Shown here: positions 8,705 through 31,322 of the stretch, piece after piece
How the letters are laid out: each line of letters opens with the position of its first letter
Numbering within the stretch: position 1 is the first letter of the stretch
From: a phage
Sequence record: PX930851.1
Direction: 5' to 3' (one strand)
Length of the DNA: 64,000 nucleotides
Position numbers and translations under genes: made by a program
Notes under the pieces: model-generated
The model's database searches: none
Told to the model about the DNA's origin: nothing
The model's input: only the letters and a program-made list of their open reading frames with translations

Positions 8705-9175
8705 TTAATCATGTTTCCACACCCCATCGGTATTTGACCAAAGTCGCTGATTATCTGATCCTCGCCACAGCTTTTTAGTCGGAAGATTTTTCTCATACTT
8801 CCCATCAATAATAACATCAACATATTTAAGCATTTCTAGTTGTTTAATATCTTCAAACTTATATCCTGTCCACAACCAAATGCTTTTATTGGGATAAAGA
8901 TTTTTTACTGTTTGAACAATGCAATGAATAACATCTCGGTTATCAGGATAGAGAGGGTCTCCTCCAGTTATAGTTAATCCTTCTATATAATCATTATTCA
9001 AACATTCAATTAATTGTTCCAGCGTTTCACCAGTGAATGGAACACCGTTTCTAGCATTCCATGTTGATTTATTATAACACCCTTCGCATTTATGCAAACA
9101 ACCTGTAACGAAAAGAACGACCCTGCATCCAGGGCCATTCACAAAATCACAAGGATAAAATCTATCATAATTCAT
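8705..9175 (-). CDS. nrdG: anaerobic ribonucleotide reductase activating protein (radical SAM)
   Basis: 156 aa; CxxxCxxC cluster motif (GCLHKCEGC); immediately downstream of nrdD. Confidence 0.9.
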   Translation of the reverse strand: MNYDRFYPCDFVNGPGCRVVLFVTGCLHKCEGCYNKSTWNARNGVPFTGETLEQLIECLNNDYIEGLTITGGDPLYPDNRDVIHCIVQTVKNLYPNKSIWLWTGYKFEDIKQLEMLKYVDVIIDGKYEKNLPTKKLWRGSDNQRLWSNTDGVWKHD

Positions 9176-10989
9176 TGGTGTTTAACCCTATGCATGATTT
9201 CTTTATTTTTTCCAAGATTAAATCCGCGTTCATTCGGATTTCCCAAATAGCCACAAGTTCTTCTTATTGTGTTCATCTTTTTAGGATCAGTTTCTCCACA
9301 AATAGAACAAACAAACCCGTTTTCAGTAGGAGTCATTTCATGGGTACTTCCACACGTAAAACATTTATCTACTGGCATGTTAACACCAAAATAATCTAAA
9401 TGTTGTGCAGCATAATCCCATACAGCCTCAAGACCTTTTAAGTTATTTTTCATATCAGGAAGTTCAACATAAGAAATGTGACCACCTGTTGCAATGAAAT
9501 GATATGGGGCTTCGCGAGAAATCTTTTCAAACGGGGTGATATTTTCTTCTACTGAAACGTGGAAACTGTTAGTGTACCAGCCTTTATCAGTAACATCCTT
9601 TACACTTCCATATTTTTCGGTATCAAGTTTACAGAAGCGATAACAAAGGTTTTCAGCAGGAGTAGAATACAAGCTAAAAGCAAAACCGGTTCTTTCAGTC
9701 CACTGCTTAAGACGAGCATTCATTTTAGTTAAAATTTCTTGTCCAATATCACGACCGGCAAGAATATTCAATTCGTGAATACCAATGTATCCTAAGGACA
9801 CTGAACTTCTACCGTTTTTAAATAACTCAATTATGTCGTCATCAGGTTTAAGACGAACCCCAAATGCACCTTCTTGGTAAAGAATAGGAGCAACAGTCGC
9901 TTTAACTCCTTTTAAGGAACTAATTCTGCACATCAAAGCTTCAAAACATAAATCCATTCGTTCATTGAACAATTCGATAAATTTCTGTTCATTGAACTGT
10001 GTTCCAATATAAGAATCTAACGCGATGCGAGGAAGATTCAGTGTTACAACACCAAGATTATTACGTCCATCAAGAATTTCATTACCGGTTGAATCTTTCC
10101 ACACACTCAAGAAACTGCTGCAACCCATTGTAGAAACAGGAATAGATGAGCCGGTGATAGCTTTATTGTTCTTAGCTGAAATAATATCAGGATACATTCT
10201 TTTGCTTGCGCACTCTAGAGCAAGCTGTTTAATATCATAGTTCGGATCGTCTTTATAAAGATTAACACCTTCTTCAACAAACATAACAAGCTTAGGGAAA
10301 ATAGGAGTTATCCCATCACGACCAAGACCTTTAATACGATTTTTCAGAATTGCTTTCTGAATCATTCGTTCAGTCCAGTCAGTTCCTGTACCAAATGTAA
10401 TTGTTACAAAAGGTGTTTGTCCGTTTGAACTAAAGAGAGTATTTACTTCATATTCATAAGCTTGGAATGCATCGTATACATCTTTTTCTGTTTTAGATTG
10501 AGCATAATTCAACGCATCAGCGATTTGCCATTTTTCTGCATCCTCAATATGTTTTGCATAGGTGCGTTTAACATAAGGAGAAAGTACTTTATCTACATTA
10601 GCAAAAGTCGTTCCGCCATATTGGTGAGAAGCAACCTGTGCAGTAATTTGTGCCATAATTGCAGTAGCAACACCGATTGATTTAGGAGTTTCAATCTGTG
10701 CATTACCAAGCTTAAATCCGTTCTCAAGCATTCCTTTTAAATCTACTAAACAACAATTAGTAAATGGAAGAGCAGGGGAATAATCAATATCATGGAAATG
10801 GATAATTCCGCTTTCATGCGCTTTCATAATAAAAGACGGGACCATATTTTTGGCAATGTGTTTAGACACAATACCAGCCATAAGGTCCCGTTGAGTTGGA
10901 AAAACACGAGAATCTTTATTAGCATTCTCGTTTAAAAGGTCTTTATTAGTTTTATGAATCAATCCTTCAATTTCTTTTTCAATTGTCAT
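9172..10989 (-). CDS. nrdD: anaerobic ribonucleoside-triphosphate reductase (glycyl radical enzyme), intronless
   Basis: 605 aa; C-terminal Zn ribbon CFTCGS...CSICGE and glycyl radical motif RTCGYLG; one uninterrupted ORF. Confidence 0.93.
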   Translation of the reverse strand: MTIEKEIEGLIHKTNKDLLNENANKDSRVFPTQRDLMAGIVSKHIAKNMVPSFIMKAHESGIIHFHDIDYSPALPFTNCCLVDLKGMLENGFKLGNAQIETPKSIGVATAIMAQITAQVASHQYGGTTFANVDKVLSPYVKRTYAKHIEDAEKWQIADALNYAQSKTEKDVYDAFQAYEYEVNTLFSSNGQTPFVTITFGTGTDWTERMIQKAILKNRIKGLGRDGITPIFPKLVMFVEEGVNLYKDDPNYDIKQLALECASKRMYPDIISAKNNKAITGSSIPVSTMGCSSFLSVWKDSTGNEILDGRNNLGVVTLNLPRIALDSYIGTQFNEQKFIELFNERMDLCFEALMCRISSLKGVKATVAPILYQEGAFGVRLKPDDDIIELFKNGRSSVSLGYIGIHELNILAGRDIGQEILTKMNARLKQWTERTGFAFSLYSTPAENLCYRFCKLDTEKYGSVKDVTDKGWYTNSFHVSVEENITPFEKISREAPYHFIATGGHISYVELPDMKNNLKGLEAVWDYAAQHLDYFGVNMPVDKCFTCGSTHEMTPTENGFVCSICGETDPKKMNTIRRTCGYLGNPNERGFNLGKNKEIMHRVKHQ

Positions 10990-27763: not shown

Positions 27764-28225
27764 TCATTGAGTTTTAATTACTGCTTTAGAAGCCTTTCCT
27801 GGTAAACGACGACTGTTGATAATTGCCATCCTACATTGAAGTGACGGGTCTTTGAACTTCTCATTAGGCTTACAAACCGTAAATCCAAGCCAAAGATTTC
27901 CATCTGTAATTTCTAAACGTCCAGGGCGATATTCAACTCCATCAATAAAATCCTCATCAATGTCAGGACGCGGAGGCATACTCAGGAATTCATTAACTTC
28001 TAAAACATGGTCTTTTATTTTATGGAATAATTCAAAAACATATGTCTCATCAATCTCCCGTTGAATTGCACGATCAAGAAGATGTTGAGAATATTTTAGA
28101 TGAAACGATGAGACTCCTGCTGCTTTTGATGCCTCACGAATCTCATTGTTAATTTGACGAAACTCCGACTCAAAATGACGACGAAGCTTATTTCGACGGA
28201 TAAAAACTTCTGTATTGATAGTCAT
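27764..28225 (-). CDS. regB: RegB site-specific endoribonuclease
   Basis: 153 aa matching T4 RegB length and N-terminus as recalled; own early promoter; synteny. Confidence 0.8.
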   Translation of the reverse strand: MTINTEVFIRRNKLRRHFESEFRQINNEIREASKAAGVSSFHLKYSQHLLDRAIQREIDETYVFELFHKIKDHVLEVNEFLSMPPRPDIDEDFIDGVEYRPGRLEITDGNLWLGFTVCKPNEKFKDPSLQCRMAIINSRRLPGKASKAVIKTQ

Positions 28226-28563: not shown

Positions 28564-28865
28564 TAGTATTTTTCCTCTGGTTGGAACACTGCACGACAAG
28601 CCCACATACTGGCTTCTTTGAGTTTCGTTTTAGCAATAGTTAACTGATCGAGGCTTTCAGCATAATTCTTCGCGAATTCACAGTCTTCACAATTATCTAG
28701 TGCTTCCCAGAATTCATCGTATAAAGCGTCAAAGATAAGTCCCAAACGAACTTCAGCGTCTTTGATAGCATTCACTTTACCGATTTTCTCTTCAGTATGC
28801 GGCTTATAACCCTTAATATCTTCAATCATATTTAACTTCCTCACCAGTACATAAATCGTATTCAA
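28563..28865 (-). CDS. vs.4-position protein; candidate Acb2-type cyclic-oligonucleotide sponge (anti-CBASS)
   Basis: ~90-100 aa ORF at the second position after regB, where T4 Vs.4 (reported as Acb2) lies; no diagnostic motif checked. Confidence 0.45.
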
Positions 28866-29043
28866 CTAAACGAATAGGTTCATGAATGCCATATCCCTGA
28901 ACAGAAATTTCTGTCGTAGGATAAATTCCATCAATATCACCCATATTCCAGGCTTCATTAAATTGCTGTTCGCCTGAATTACTAAACCACTCGGCGAAAG
29001 CATTTAGTACATCTTTAGAACCTTCAATAATTATCTTTGCCAT
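28822..29043 (-). CDS. hypothetical protein, 73 aa
   Basis: ORF track. Confidence 0.45.
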   Translation of the reverse strand: MAKIIIEGSKDVLNAFAEWFSNSGEQQFNEAWNMGDIDGIYPTTEISVQGYGIHEPIRLVEYDLCTGEEVKYD

Positions 29044-29405
29044 TATAAGCTCTCAGTAAAGGTACGAGCGATAACGTCGCGCTGCTGTTCCGGAGTCAGA
29101 GAGTTAAAGCGAACTGCATAACCGGATACACGGATGGTCAGCTGCGGATATTTTTCCGGATGCTTAACTGCATCTTCCAGAGTTTCACGACGCAGAACGT
29201 TAACGTTCAGGTGTTGACCACCTTCAATTTTAACTGTAGGTTGTGTTTCAATTTCAATTTCACGGGCATGCAAACCGTAGAAAATTTCCGGGTCTACAAA
29301 AGAGTCCTCTTTAAAGGTTTTAGAGACAATAATTCGTGCTTGAATACCATCTTCAAAATAAATAGTACCTTTATGTGTGCCTTCAAGAATTTGATATGCT
29401 TTCAT
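29043..29405 (-). CDS. autonomous glycyl radical cofactor (GrcA/YfiD-like)
   Basis: C-terminal ~60 aa [60 protein letters not shown] matches E. coli GrcA as recalled, including RVSGY glycyl radical motif. Confidence 0.85.
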
Positions 29406-29412
29406 ATAAACC

Positions 29413-29742
29413 TCAATTAGAAAATAAATTTATCCAAGATTGTTCTTTAATTAAAAATGGCTCAGAATCATATGCCATTAAACTTTGGGTGATTAGTCCT
29501 TTAAAAGGTCCATCAATAAATTCCATGGTAAAATATGGAATTTTATTCATTAGCCGTGCATTAGGAGCAGTACATAAAACTCTGCATCCTTTGAATACAC
29601 CCTTTTGTAATTTGTATTGCTTGGGATAAAATTCGCTCAAAATGTTATTATTTGCTAAAATTTCAAAATGATTCACCAATTTATTTTTAATAGTTTTTGG
29701 CGAAAAATAGAGATATTCGAAAAGCTGTGTGTCTGTCATCAT
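29413..29742 (-). CDS. hypothetical protein, 109 aa
   Basis: ORF track. Confidence 0.5.
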
Positions 29743-30281
29743 TGCATTCCAATAACAAAAAATTGAGGACGAACTGTTTCACCTGTTTCAGCATTATAGC
29801 TTCGACAACAGTGTTGTACCGTTTTAATATGGATATTGTAAATCTTATCCATATCAGGAGCTTTAATAGGTTCGTCAATTATGTACAAGATACGAGAAAG
29901 CGATAACCCACGGAATTTATGACCTTCATTACCGATAAAACTACGGACAGAATCAGTAAATAAACGAAAACGTATATCATCATTAGAATAACGCGAAAAT
30001 TCCTTTTTAATGTTATTTGCAGAAATTTTAGCGTAAGCTGAAGTATTAGAAAGAACAATAACTGTTCCGCCATCATACAGCCAATTAGCAGCAAAGTTAG
30101 TCACAGCAATTGATTTACCGGATTGACGTCCACCATCTATACGAAGTGTGCAGTACTGTTTGAGCACATCTTCCATTGGTGGAAGATAATCATTCTTACA
30201 AAGTTCTTCTACTCTAGCATCAGAATGGTGTGTAAAAGCATTCATCAGGGATAGATAAGGACCAGTTAAAAATGTTCTCAT
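29739..30281 (-). CDS. P-loop NTPase-like protein, ~180 aa
   Basis: Walker A GGRQSGKS and Walker B-like ILYIIDEP; start moved to ATG 30281 (AGAGAG RBS); track N-terminal extension lacks RBS. Confidence 0.5.
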   Translation of the reverse strand: MRTFLTGPYLSLMNAFTHHSDARVEELCKNDYLPPMEDVLKQYCTLRIDGGRQSGKSIAVTNFAANWLYDGGTVIVLSNTSAYAKISANNIKKEFSRYSNDDIRFRLFTDSVRSFIGNEGHKFRGLSLSRILYIIDEPIKAPDMDKIYNIHIKTVQHCCRSYNAETGETVRPQFFVIGMQ

Positions 30282-30422
30282 TTTATTCTCTCTAAGTTTG
30301 GGCCATTCCGTGGCGCATGAATTGTCCATTTCTGTATTTACCCATTACCGCACTTGGGCTCGACCTTATCACAGGTTGGCGGGAATCCCTCATAGAATCA
30401 TGAGGTCCAGGTTGTTCCCATA

Positions 30423-30905: not shown

Positions 30906-31322
30906 TTAAATGTAAATATTTTTACCGTAATACTTATACCAATGTGGTTTCATTAAAATTTTTTCATCAAGTCGTTGTTGACTCAATTTAATAGCTGATT
31001 TGCATGGATTATAATCATTTTTCCATTCTATTGGAATATCGCTGATGTCAGGAACTTCAGTATCTTTTATACTGAACCCGCGTTTTAAGCATTCCGTTAT
31101 AATGTCTAATTGACGCTTTCGCAAAAATTCTAACTTATCGTAAAAGAACGTAACATGACCAGAACCTAAAATAAACTCGGAAGATATTTTAAAATCTTTA
31201 ACGCGCTTACCGTTTGCCACATGCTTACGAACTATACCAAAAACACGCGGCAATTCACGGTATTCTGCGATTAAATGTTGATCAGCAAGTTCAGATACTA
31301 AAGTCAAATTAATACGAGTCAT
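30906..31322 (-). CDS. denV: endonuclease V (pyrimidine dimer DNA glycosylase)
   Basis: 138 aa; [17 protein letters not shown]... as recalled for T4 endo V; own early promoter. Confidence 0.9.

Follow-up and report, generated by a model that had tools for sequence, protein, structure and literature searches.

Vs.6 of a T4-type phage, a GrcA/YfiD homologue with a C-terminal half very probably overwritten from the grcA gene of its host

The window analysed here, a stretch of phage DNA of 64,000 nucleotides (sequence record PX930851.1), contains a small gene, vs.6, whose second half is indistinguishable in protein from E. coli GrcA (YfiD) and whose first half finds no match in E. coli genomes. 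This raises two questions: how half of a phage gene came to look like a host chromosomal gene, and which enzyme its product serves. We hold with high confidence that vs.6 encodes a phage GrcA/YfiD that rescues host PFL, that its tail was overwritten from E. coli grcA, and that the same happened independently from K. pneumoniae in Jiaodavirus. Below, "head" and "tail" denote the N-terminal and C-terminal halves of the gene or its product.

Identity and setting of vs.6

Over the whole gene, vs.6 of the window is 99.2% identical in nucleotide sequence to vs.6 of RB51, and its product is identical to T4 Y06I (NP_049730) at 118 of 120 residues. In the T4 reference genome (RefSeq), vs.6 bears the annotation "autonomous glycyl radical cofactor GrcA". 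The window and RB51 also agree in gene order, with vs.8 and vs.7 upstream of vs.6, vs.5, vs.4, vs.3 and regB downstream, and denV further upstream (Table 1). Based on the close match to RB51, the same neighbours and a T4 orthologue that differs at only 2 of 120 residues, the window belongs to a Tequatrovirus genome, and its reading frame at this site is the gene named Y06I in the older literature. The site of vs.6, between vs.7 and vs.5/vs.4 and near regB and denV, is conserved in RB51, T4, RB69, Mineola, KP27 and RB16.

Table 1. Features of the window discussed in the text, with window coordinates
Feature	Position	Strand	Remarks
vs.6 (Y06I, phage grcA) CDS	29043..29405	minus	starts ATG; 120 aa plus TAA stop
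Head, gene nt 1-178	29228..29405	minus	codons 1-59 and part of 60; phage-lineage, homologous to the GrcA N-terminus but diverged
Host-derived conversion tract, gene nt 179-353	29053..29227	minus	exactly E. coli grcA nt 200-374, strain SK1144-type allele
Phage-type 3' end, gene nt 354-363	29043..29052	minus	right-hand junction
RVSGY glycyl-radical motif, residues 92-96	29118..29132	minus	read from the translation
Codon of the radical glycine, G95	29121..29123	minus	equals GrcA G102 and PflB G734
Shine-Dalgarno GAGG	29411..29414	minus	5 nt 5' of the vs.6 ATG, within the end of vs.7
vs.5	28822..29043	minus	no Pfam match
vs.7	29413..29742	minus	no Pfam match
vs.8	29739..30329	minus	no Pfam match
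regB-like ORF	27764..28225
denV	30906..31322
nrdG	8705..9175	minus	Fer4_12 and Radical_SAM domains
nrdD	9172..10989	minus	605 aa; RTCGY motif at residues 577-581

The product matched the GrcA/YfiD family TIGR04365 (IPR011140; E = 1.4e-45), PF01228 (E = 2.2e-18, residues 60-101) and the YfiD structure PDB 6OWR (E = 4.6e-42), in agreement with the GrcA-like gene of the preliminary description. Its TIGR04365 score, 154.6 bits, stays under the curated equivalog cutoff of 170, which E. coli GrcA passes with 234, because the N-terminal half has diverged. From these matches, the protein is a diverged member of the GrcA family and is predicted to act like GrcA.

We scanned the surroundings of vs.6 for expression signals. 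Promoter-like sites were fewer than in shuffled controls, with none directly upstream of the gene, and terminators did not exceed the shuffled expectation. The stop codon of vs.6 and the start codon of vs.5 overlap (TAATG), and vs.5, vs.7 and vs.8 lie close against vs.6 with stop and start codons that overlap, an arrangement suggestive of translational coupling.

Genes like grcA were found in 1515 of 50,697 phage records. The carriers include T5-like Tequintavirus, Krischvirus and jumbo phages of Escherichia and Erwinia, in which the DNA is 70-76% identical to the window tail. In the T5-like phage Spc35 (Tequintavirus), the grcA-like gene adjoins tRNA genes.

A host-identical tract inside an old phage gene

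Residues 61-120 of the vs.6 product equal residues 68-127 of E. coli GrcA at all 60 positions, including RVSGY. The likeness reaches the DNA. Gene nt 179-363 matched grcA of every complete E. coli genome searched by blastn (5426/5426) at 97.8-98.4% identity, and the longest exact run, shared with strain SK1144, was 175 nt, extending from the last two bases of codon 60 to the second base of codon 118. The K-12 allele departs from this tract by a single synonymous difference; a 61-mer of the tract around that site was exact in 2970 of the 5339 E. coli genomes that matched.

In a codon-based alignment of vs.6 with E. coli grcA, the maximum chi-square breakpoint fell after aligned column 151, with 73 of 151 positions identical on its left (48%) and 179 of 182 on its right (98%). 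The statistic (chi2 = 112) was reached in none of 2000 permutations. The preliminary description, which had called the C-terminal half host-identical, had proposed looking for such a boundary in mid-gene and comparing the codon usage of the two halves. In the latter comparison, GC3 was 0.20 in the head and 0.43 in the tract. The window has 53 long ORFs, and the 1236 sixty-codon windows drawn from them had a mean GC3 of 0.227 (sd 0.059) and a maximum equal to the value of the tract.

The host-like sequence ends before the gene does. Gene nt 354-363 lie in the codons GAG AGC TTA TAA, against GAA AGC CTG TAA in E. coli, with three synonymous differences, and vs.6 of RB69, leB, RB16 and KP27 ends with GAG AGT CTA TAA in common. 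Since the last 10 nt are phage-like and differ from E. coli, the host-identical stretch is internal to vs.6. Among phage records, the identity of the tail to that of the window was bimodal, with 641 records at or above 95%, 6 at 90-95% and 862 below 90%. In IMG/VR, tails identical to E. coli at 168-170 of 170 positions occurred only in six contigs of Tequatrovirus/Mosigvirus type, and tails of all other lineages reached 122-155 of 170 against the best of 82 host genes. We also considered an assembly artefact as the source of the exact run and rejected it, as the tract is present in 641 independent phage records.

Could purifying selection alone, with no recombination, have kept a tail that must fit host PFL and PFL-AE? 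The tail protein is indeed extremely conserved in phages: RB16 and leB (Pseudotevenvirus) have the same 60 of 60 residues as E. coli GrcA, with dN = 0, and T5-like and jumbo phages have retained the greater part. Yet RB16 and leB differ from E. coli at 30 of 180 nt in the tail (dS 1.4-1.8), against the 175-nt exact run of the window, indicating that selection on the protein does not yield identity of the DNA. The codons of the tract are host-type, at the GC3 maximum given above, and Klebsiella phages instead agree with K. pneumoniae at the synonymous sites peculiar to that species. The exact run and the host-type codons therefore require a recent transfer of DNA; the synonymous sites already refute selection as the sole cause, and we leave it hardly any probability. 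Constraint accounts for the identity of the protein and recent host-to-phage conversion for that of the DNA, so that each acts at a level of its own. Recent recombination with the host and strong constraint, which the preliminary description had offered as alternatives, are thus both borne out, the former by the exact run, the host-like GC3 and a dS near zero, the latter at the protein level.

We next consider the head. Gene nt 1-178 found no match in the 5426 complete E. coli genomes by blastn. When 15 phage heads were compared with 67 host GrcA N-termini, tails removed, hhalign gave a probability of 93.2% (E = 2.9e-7) over 47 columns at 28% identity, and the alignments of the vs.6 protein to TIGR04365 and PDB 6OWR reach back to residues 20-22. 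In family scans, the head alone matched no NCBIfam family and gave only one sub-threshold Pfam match (E up to 1), so its kinship to GrcA is remote, and it was detected only by profile-profile comparison. The head occurs in 814 phage records at 72-100% nucleotide identity, distributed continuously, for example 91% in RB69 and 72-76% in Klebsiella phages. It is orthologous, in a shared gene neighbourhood, across Tequatrovirus, Mosigvirus, Jiaodavirus, Karamvirus, Slopekvirus and Pseudotevenvirus.

Hence the N-terminal ~60 residues, earlier taken for unrelated phage sequence, are homologous to the N-terminus of GrcA, and what took place was gene conversion within an old phage grcA homologue. The word chimeric in the preliminary description stands in the sense of recombination with the host; it fails in the sense of a host piece fused to unrelated phage sequence. 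Taken together, vs.6 is an old phage grcA homologue whose first half diverged and whose second half was recently replaced.

Which way did the DNA move? Counted from E. coli K-12, the grcA tail differs at 3 sites in another Escherichia, 14 in Citrobacter and 30 in Salmonella, and the host heads diverge in parallel. Citrobacter is the next-closest sampled host outside Escherichia, with 167 of 183 positions identical to the phage. The phage tract lies within E. coli variation: of the two common alleles of E. coli, one has the same sequence. With its sharp boundaries, synonymous divergence of about zero, donor codon usage and nesting within donor diversity, it bears the marks of a recent host-to-phage gene conversion. 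On these comparisons, grcA of the E. coli chromosome was the donor, and the phage received the sequence. Transfer from phage to host, or recent capture of the whole gene from E. coli followed by fast 5' divergence, would account for the shared sequence and gains nothing specific beyond it. E. coli grcA is full-length, with both halves co-linear with those of other Enterobacterales and a divergence that tracks host relatedness, and the phage head has phage-type GC3 besides its orthologues in the same neighbourhood of six T4-type genera. We regard the probability of either scenario as negligible.

Other E. coli genes were considered as donors. Among the matches listed in E. coli genomes, tdcE was the only paralogue, at 76%, compared with 98% for grcA; pflB and tdcE were rejected as donors, their identity being 76-80%.

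The junctions coincide with the limits of phage-host homology. Phage and host DNA are ~48% identical on the upstream side of the tract and bear no relation to each other beyond the stop codon. Phage tails that have not been converted match host tails at ~76-84% identity and have TTGAAGGTGG (10 nt) in common with them on the left edge and, on the right edge, ACCTTTAC. Because homology between phage and host is confined to the tail, the tract covers essentially all the sequence that can pair.

We therefore favour host-to-phage conversion, very probably along the following course. A grcA homologue has long been present in T4-like phages at a fixed position between vs.7 and vs.5/vs.4, with an N-terminal half that diverged freely and 60 C-terminal residues almost frozen by selection. 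In the lineage or lineages leading to Tequatrovirus and Mosigvirus, only one part of this gene, ~175 nt long, was still close enough in sequence to its host counterpart for pairing, and E. coli grcA overwrote it, beginning at EGGQH and ending ~10 nt short of the stop codon. The sharp boundaries are the edges of phage-host homology, the right one close to the stop codon. The presumed event is a homeologous recombination of the phage gene with a piece of host chromosome, resolved at these edges, and T4 UvsX or host RecA may have carried it out.

Age and recurrence of the conversion

The tract is carried by both Tequatrovirus (the window, T4 and RB51) and Mosigvirus (RB69 and ATK48). We compared its divergence between the two genera with that of the head. 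Against RB69, the window differs at 16 of 180 sites in the head and 2 of 170 in the tract (Fisher p = 0.001); against ATK48, the counts are 22 of 180 and 2 of 170 (Fisher p = 2e-5). Between the genera, the head thus differs at 9-12% of sites and the tract at ~1%. Synonymous divergence is 0.27-0.40 in the head and ~0.02-0.05 in the tract, with the last 10 nt set aside, and third-position differences number 9-12 of 60 versus 1-2 of 56 (p = 0.002-0.02). In bins of 30 nt, the first five bins of the tract hold 0-1 differences and the bin spanning its 3' end 2-3, the head bins hold 1-6, and those of vs.5 just downstream 6-12. In vs.5, 25-35% of sites differ, far above either half of vs.6. In 11 sampled phages, the two genera are set apart by many head sites and by no tract site, and none of the 175 nt of the tract shows a fixed difference from E. 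coli. The divergence of the tract being so much lower than that of the head, the tract is younger than the split of Tequatrovirus and Mosigvirus.

Either each genus was converted separately, or one conversion was followed by passage between phages. Three points favour separate conversions, none of them conclusively. First, the block of low divergence coincides with the limits of host homology. Second, the right-hand end is patchy: at gene nt 354, 357, 358 and 360, the 11 phages show six different arrangements of bases of E. coli type and of phage type. Third, at tail position 39 (C/T), both E. coli alleles occur in both genera. One phage (L099) has a third state, G, at this position, which means that the site mutates recurrently, and its polymorphism is therefore only suggestive of multiple conversions.

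A single old conversion in the common ancestor of the two genera, with unusually slow change of the tract and no event after the split, would be the most economical account, and the left junction is identical and the right one similar in both genera. Against it stand the synonymous divergence, far lower in the tract than in the head, the lack of any fixed E. coli difference over 175 nt, the patchy right end and the two alleles at position 39 in both genera. We consider a single old event unlikely, and prefer conversion after the split.

The Klebsiella phages offer a second case. In Jiaodavirus, the head is orthologous to that of the window, and the tail has a GC3 of 0.58-0.60 and its closest host match in K. 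pneumoniae grcA. An IMG/VR genome of 167 kb (L120, UViG_2974754850) is identical to K. pneumoniae grcA at 157 of the first 158 nt of the tail and then has a phage-type end. The tail of Mineola (L004) is 94.8% identical to K. pneumoniae grcA, and 138 phage records reach at least 90% identity to the K. pneumoniae tail. In L120, Mineola and pzk-kv19 (L092), the left junction is the same as in the E. coli case, and the 3' end is of phage type. We read the Jiaodavirus tail, by the same kind of comparison, as a second, independent conversion, from K. pneumoniae. Jiaodavirus tails have two Klebsiella-type residues (LLDAVEH versus LEDAVKH), as does the older, AT-richer tail of KP27 (Slopekvirus).

The K. 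pneumoniae grcA used here (L175) came from CP125156.1, a chromosome of 5.37 Mb mislabelled as a plasmid in PLSDB, and the 80 host loci of the GTDB scan did not include K. pneumoniae itself. The PLSDB plasmid collection includes whole or partial chromosomes labelled as plasmids. Two further genes have irregular frames: the head of L120 is apparently interrupted, with an ORF parse of 80 aa only, and grcA of K. aerogenes NCTC10006 (LR134122.1, L176) is frameshifted, probably through an assembly error.

Other IMG/VR contigs carry tails that resemble those of further hosts. The tail of L123 is identical to Yersinia grcA at 155 of 170 nt and encodes a Yersinia-type protein, and those of L113-L118 have the Pasteurellaceae-type NPDKYPQ and are identical to Haemophilus parainfluenzae at up to 147 of 170 positions. 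This suggests that host matching extends beyond the Enterobacteriaceae. Among short IMG/VR contigs, L164-L174 contain GC-rich ORF ends with a 60-aa tail that is nearly the PflB C-terminus in protein (MNREMLLDAME[HN]PEKY...); these may be host pflB on prophage-containing contigs, not phage spare parts.

Conversions may well number more than two, given the patchy right junctions and the host-type residues in KP27 and in the unclassified Yersinia- and Pasteurellaceae-type contigs. We wondered whether vs.6 is a standing hotspot at which virulent T-even phages repeatedly and adaptively overwrite the working half of the gene with the grcA of their current host. We put this forward tentatively, as somewhat less probable than its opposite. 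If it is true, conversion would keep the phage module matched to host PFL and its activase, and degraded host DNA would recombine into T-even genomes wherever ~180 nt of 80-85% homology exist. As the protein was already nearly identical, conversion could also be a neutral by-product of recombination.

Client enzyme and comparison with known systems

The biochemistry of this kind of protein is known from T4 and E. coli. T4 Y06I is activated by PFL-AE in vitro and reconstitutes O2-cleaved PFL, according to the account of Wagner 2001 given in PMC8683613. For O2-cleaved PFL, two spare-part proteins have been validated, Y06I and YfiD: PFL-AE installs a glycyl radical on the spare part, which complements PFL cleaved by oxygen at Gly734 (PMC8683613). 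Residues 61-127 of YfiD fold like residues 693-759 of PFL; its residues 1-60, though disordered, are needed for cPFL binding and activation (PMC8683613). The converted tract corresponds to YfiD residues 68-125, within the structured half. The vs.6 tail is ~76% identical to PflB 697-759 (1H16) over 63 residues (E = 5e-26).

Because the window protein is identical at 118 of 120 residues to the biochemically tested T4 protein, we assign it the function of Y06I with high confidence, as a prediction. Host PFL-AE would put the radical on Gly95, and the C-terminal domain would dock into host PFL with an oxygen-severed radical domain, restoring its activity. In an infected cell under microaerobic conditions, production of acetyl-CoA and formate might thus be sustained.

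Does the phage have a client enzyme of its own? The window also carries nrdD and nrdG, which overlap each other by 4 nt and lie ~18 kb from vs.6 on the same strand. The preliminary description had pointed to this pair in proposing a spare glycyl-radical module, here taken to mean one for phage NrdD, activated by NrdG. Besides the presence of both genes in the same window, a 2006 comparative-genomics paper can be counted for this proposal, in which a role of vs.6 in nucleotide metabolism was guessed from a shared Pfam domain (PMC1524935). However, vs.6 has no detectable similarity to NrdD of the window outside the generic motif (BLASTP E = 5.8), and the radical site of NrdD is RTCGY in an unrelated context. 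The tail, by contrast, has the match to PflB just described and is 100% identical to host GrcA, and it is PFL that T4 Y06I reconstitutes, as relayed in PMC8683613 from Wagner 2001. We judge a service to NrdD to be highly improbable; host PFL, and not phage NrdD, is the target predicted for vs.6.

An indirect link between host PFL and the phage nrdD/nrdG enzyme is conceivable. Formate is the reductant of class III ribonucleotide reductase, as seen with the E. coli enzyme. Formate made by rescued PFL may therefore supply the phage class III ribonucleotide reductase.

With E. coli GrcA/YfiD (P68066; NMR structure 6OWR), vs.6 shares the 60 C-terminal residues, the 175 identical nt and the architecture of a disordered N-terminal half joined to a structured glycyl-radical half that copies PFL 693-759. 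It differs in that its N-terminal half is seven residues shorter and ~28% identical, and in that it lies in a phage operon without the regulatory region of host grcA. The C-terminal domain of PflB (1H16, 697-759) is the same fold element with the same RVSGY, but belongs to an enzyme of 85 kDa, whereas vs.6 is a stand-alone protein of 14 kDa.

For the exchange itself, a precedent exists. Intragenic recombination between host and phage has reportedly been described for cyanophage psbA, which encodes photosystem II D1, in work said to be that of Zeidner in 2005 and Sullivan in 2006. There too, a metabolic gene of T4-like phages exchanges segments with the host copy and becomes mosaic, so the phenomenon is of a known kind. 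Unlike psbA, vs.6 involves an enterobacterial host and a tract bounded by the limits of homology in a half-diverged gene, and the same segment was replaced independently from two host species.

The gene and its biochemical role are already known, and the window adds no new kind of system. PMC1524935 notes only the Pfam domain of vs.6. The searchable literature contains no mention of the DNA-level mosaic, of recurrent conversion or of the repetition in Klebsiella phages, though these may have been noticed earlier. T4-type phages degrade the DNA of their host. The contribution is thus evolutionary: a clean and precisely bounded case in which a strictly lytic T4-type phage very probably took up host chromosomal DNA by homologous exchange. 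Replacement of the same vs.6 segment from two host species makes it a natural marker of how often conversion occurs and of the recent host of a T-even lineage. The case also separates selection from recent transfer, which look alike at the protein level, and provides a natural experiment on which residues of a spare part must match the host enzyme.

T4 Y06I is the closest of the known systems, being the same gene between vs.7 and vs.5 with the same E. coli-identical tract. The two residues that differ are Pro54 and His73 in T4, against Thr54 and Arg73 in the window. In Arg73 the window agrees with E. coli, which places its copy nearer to the host than the T4 protein that was tested. At this site (29187..29189 in the window), T4 vs.6 (L003, 3558-3920) has CAT, for His73, and E. 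coli and all other sampled phages have CGT, CGC or CGG, for Arg. As His73 is confined, among the phages sampled, to the T4 reference strain, the tested Y06I bears a strain-specific substitution inside the host-derived tract.
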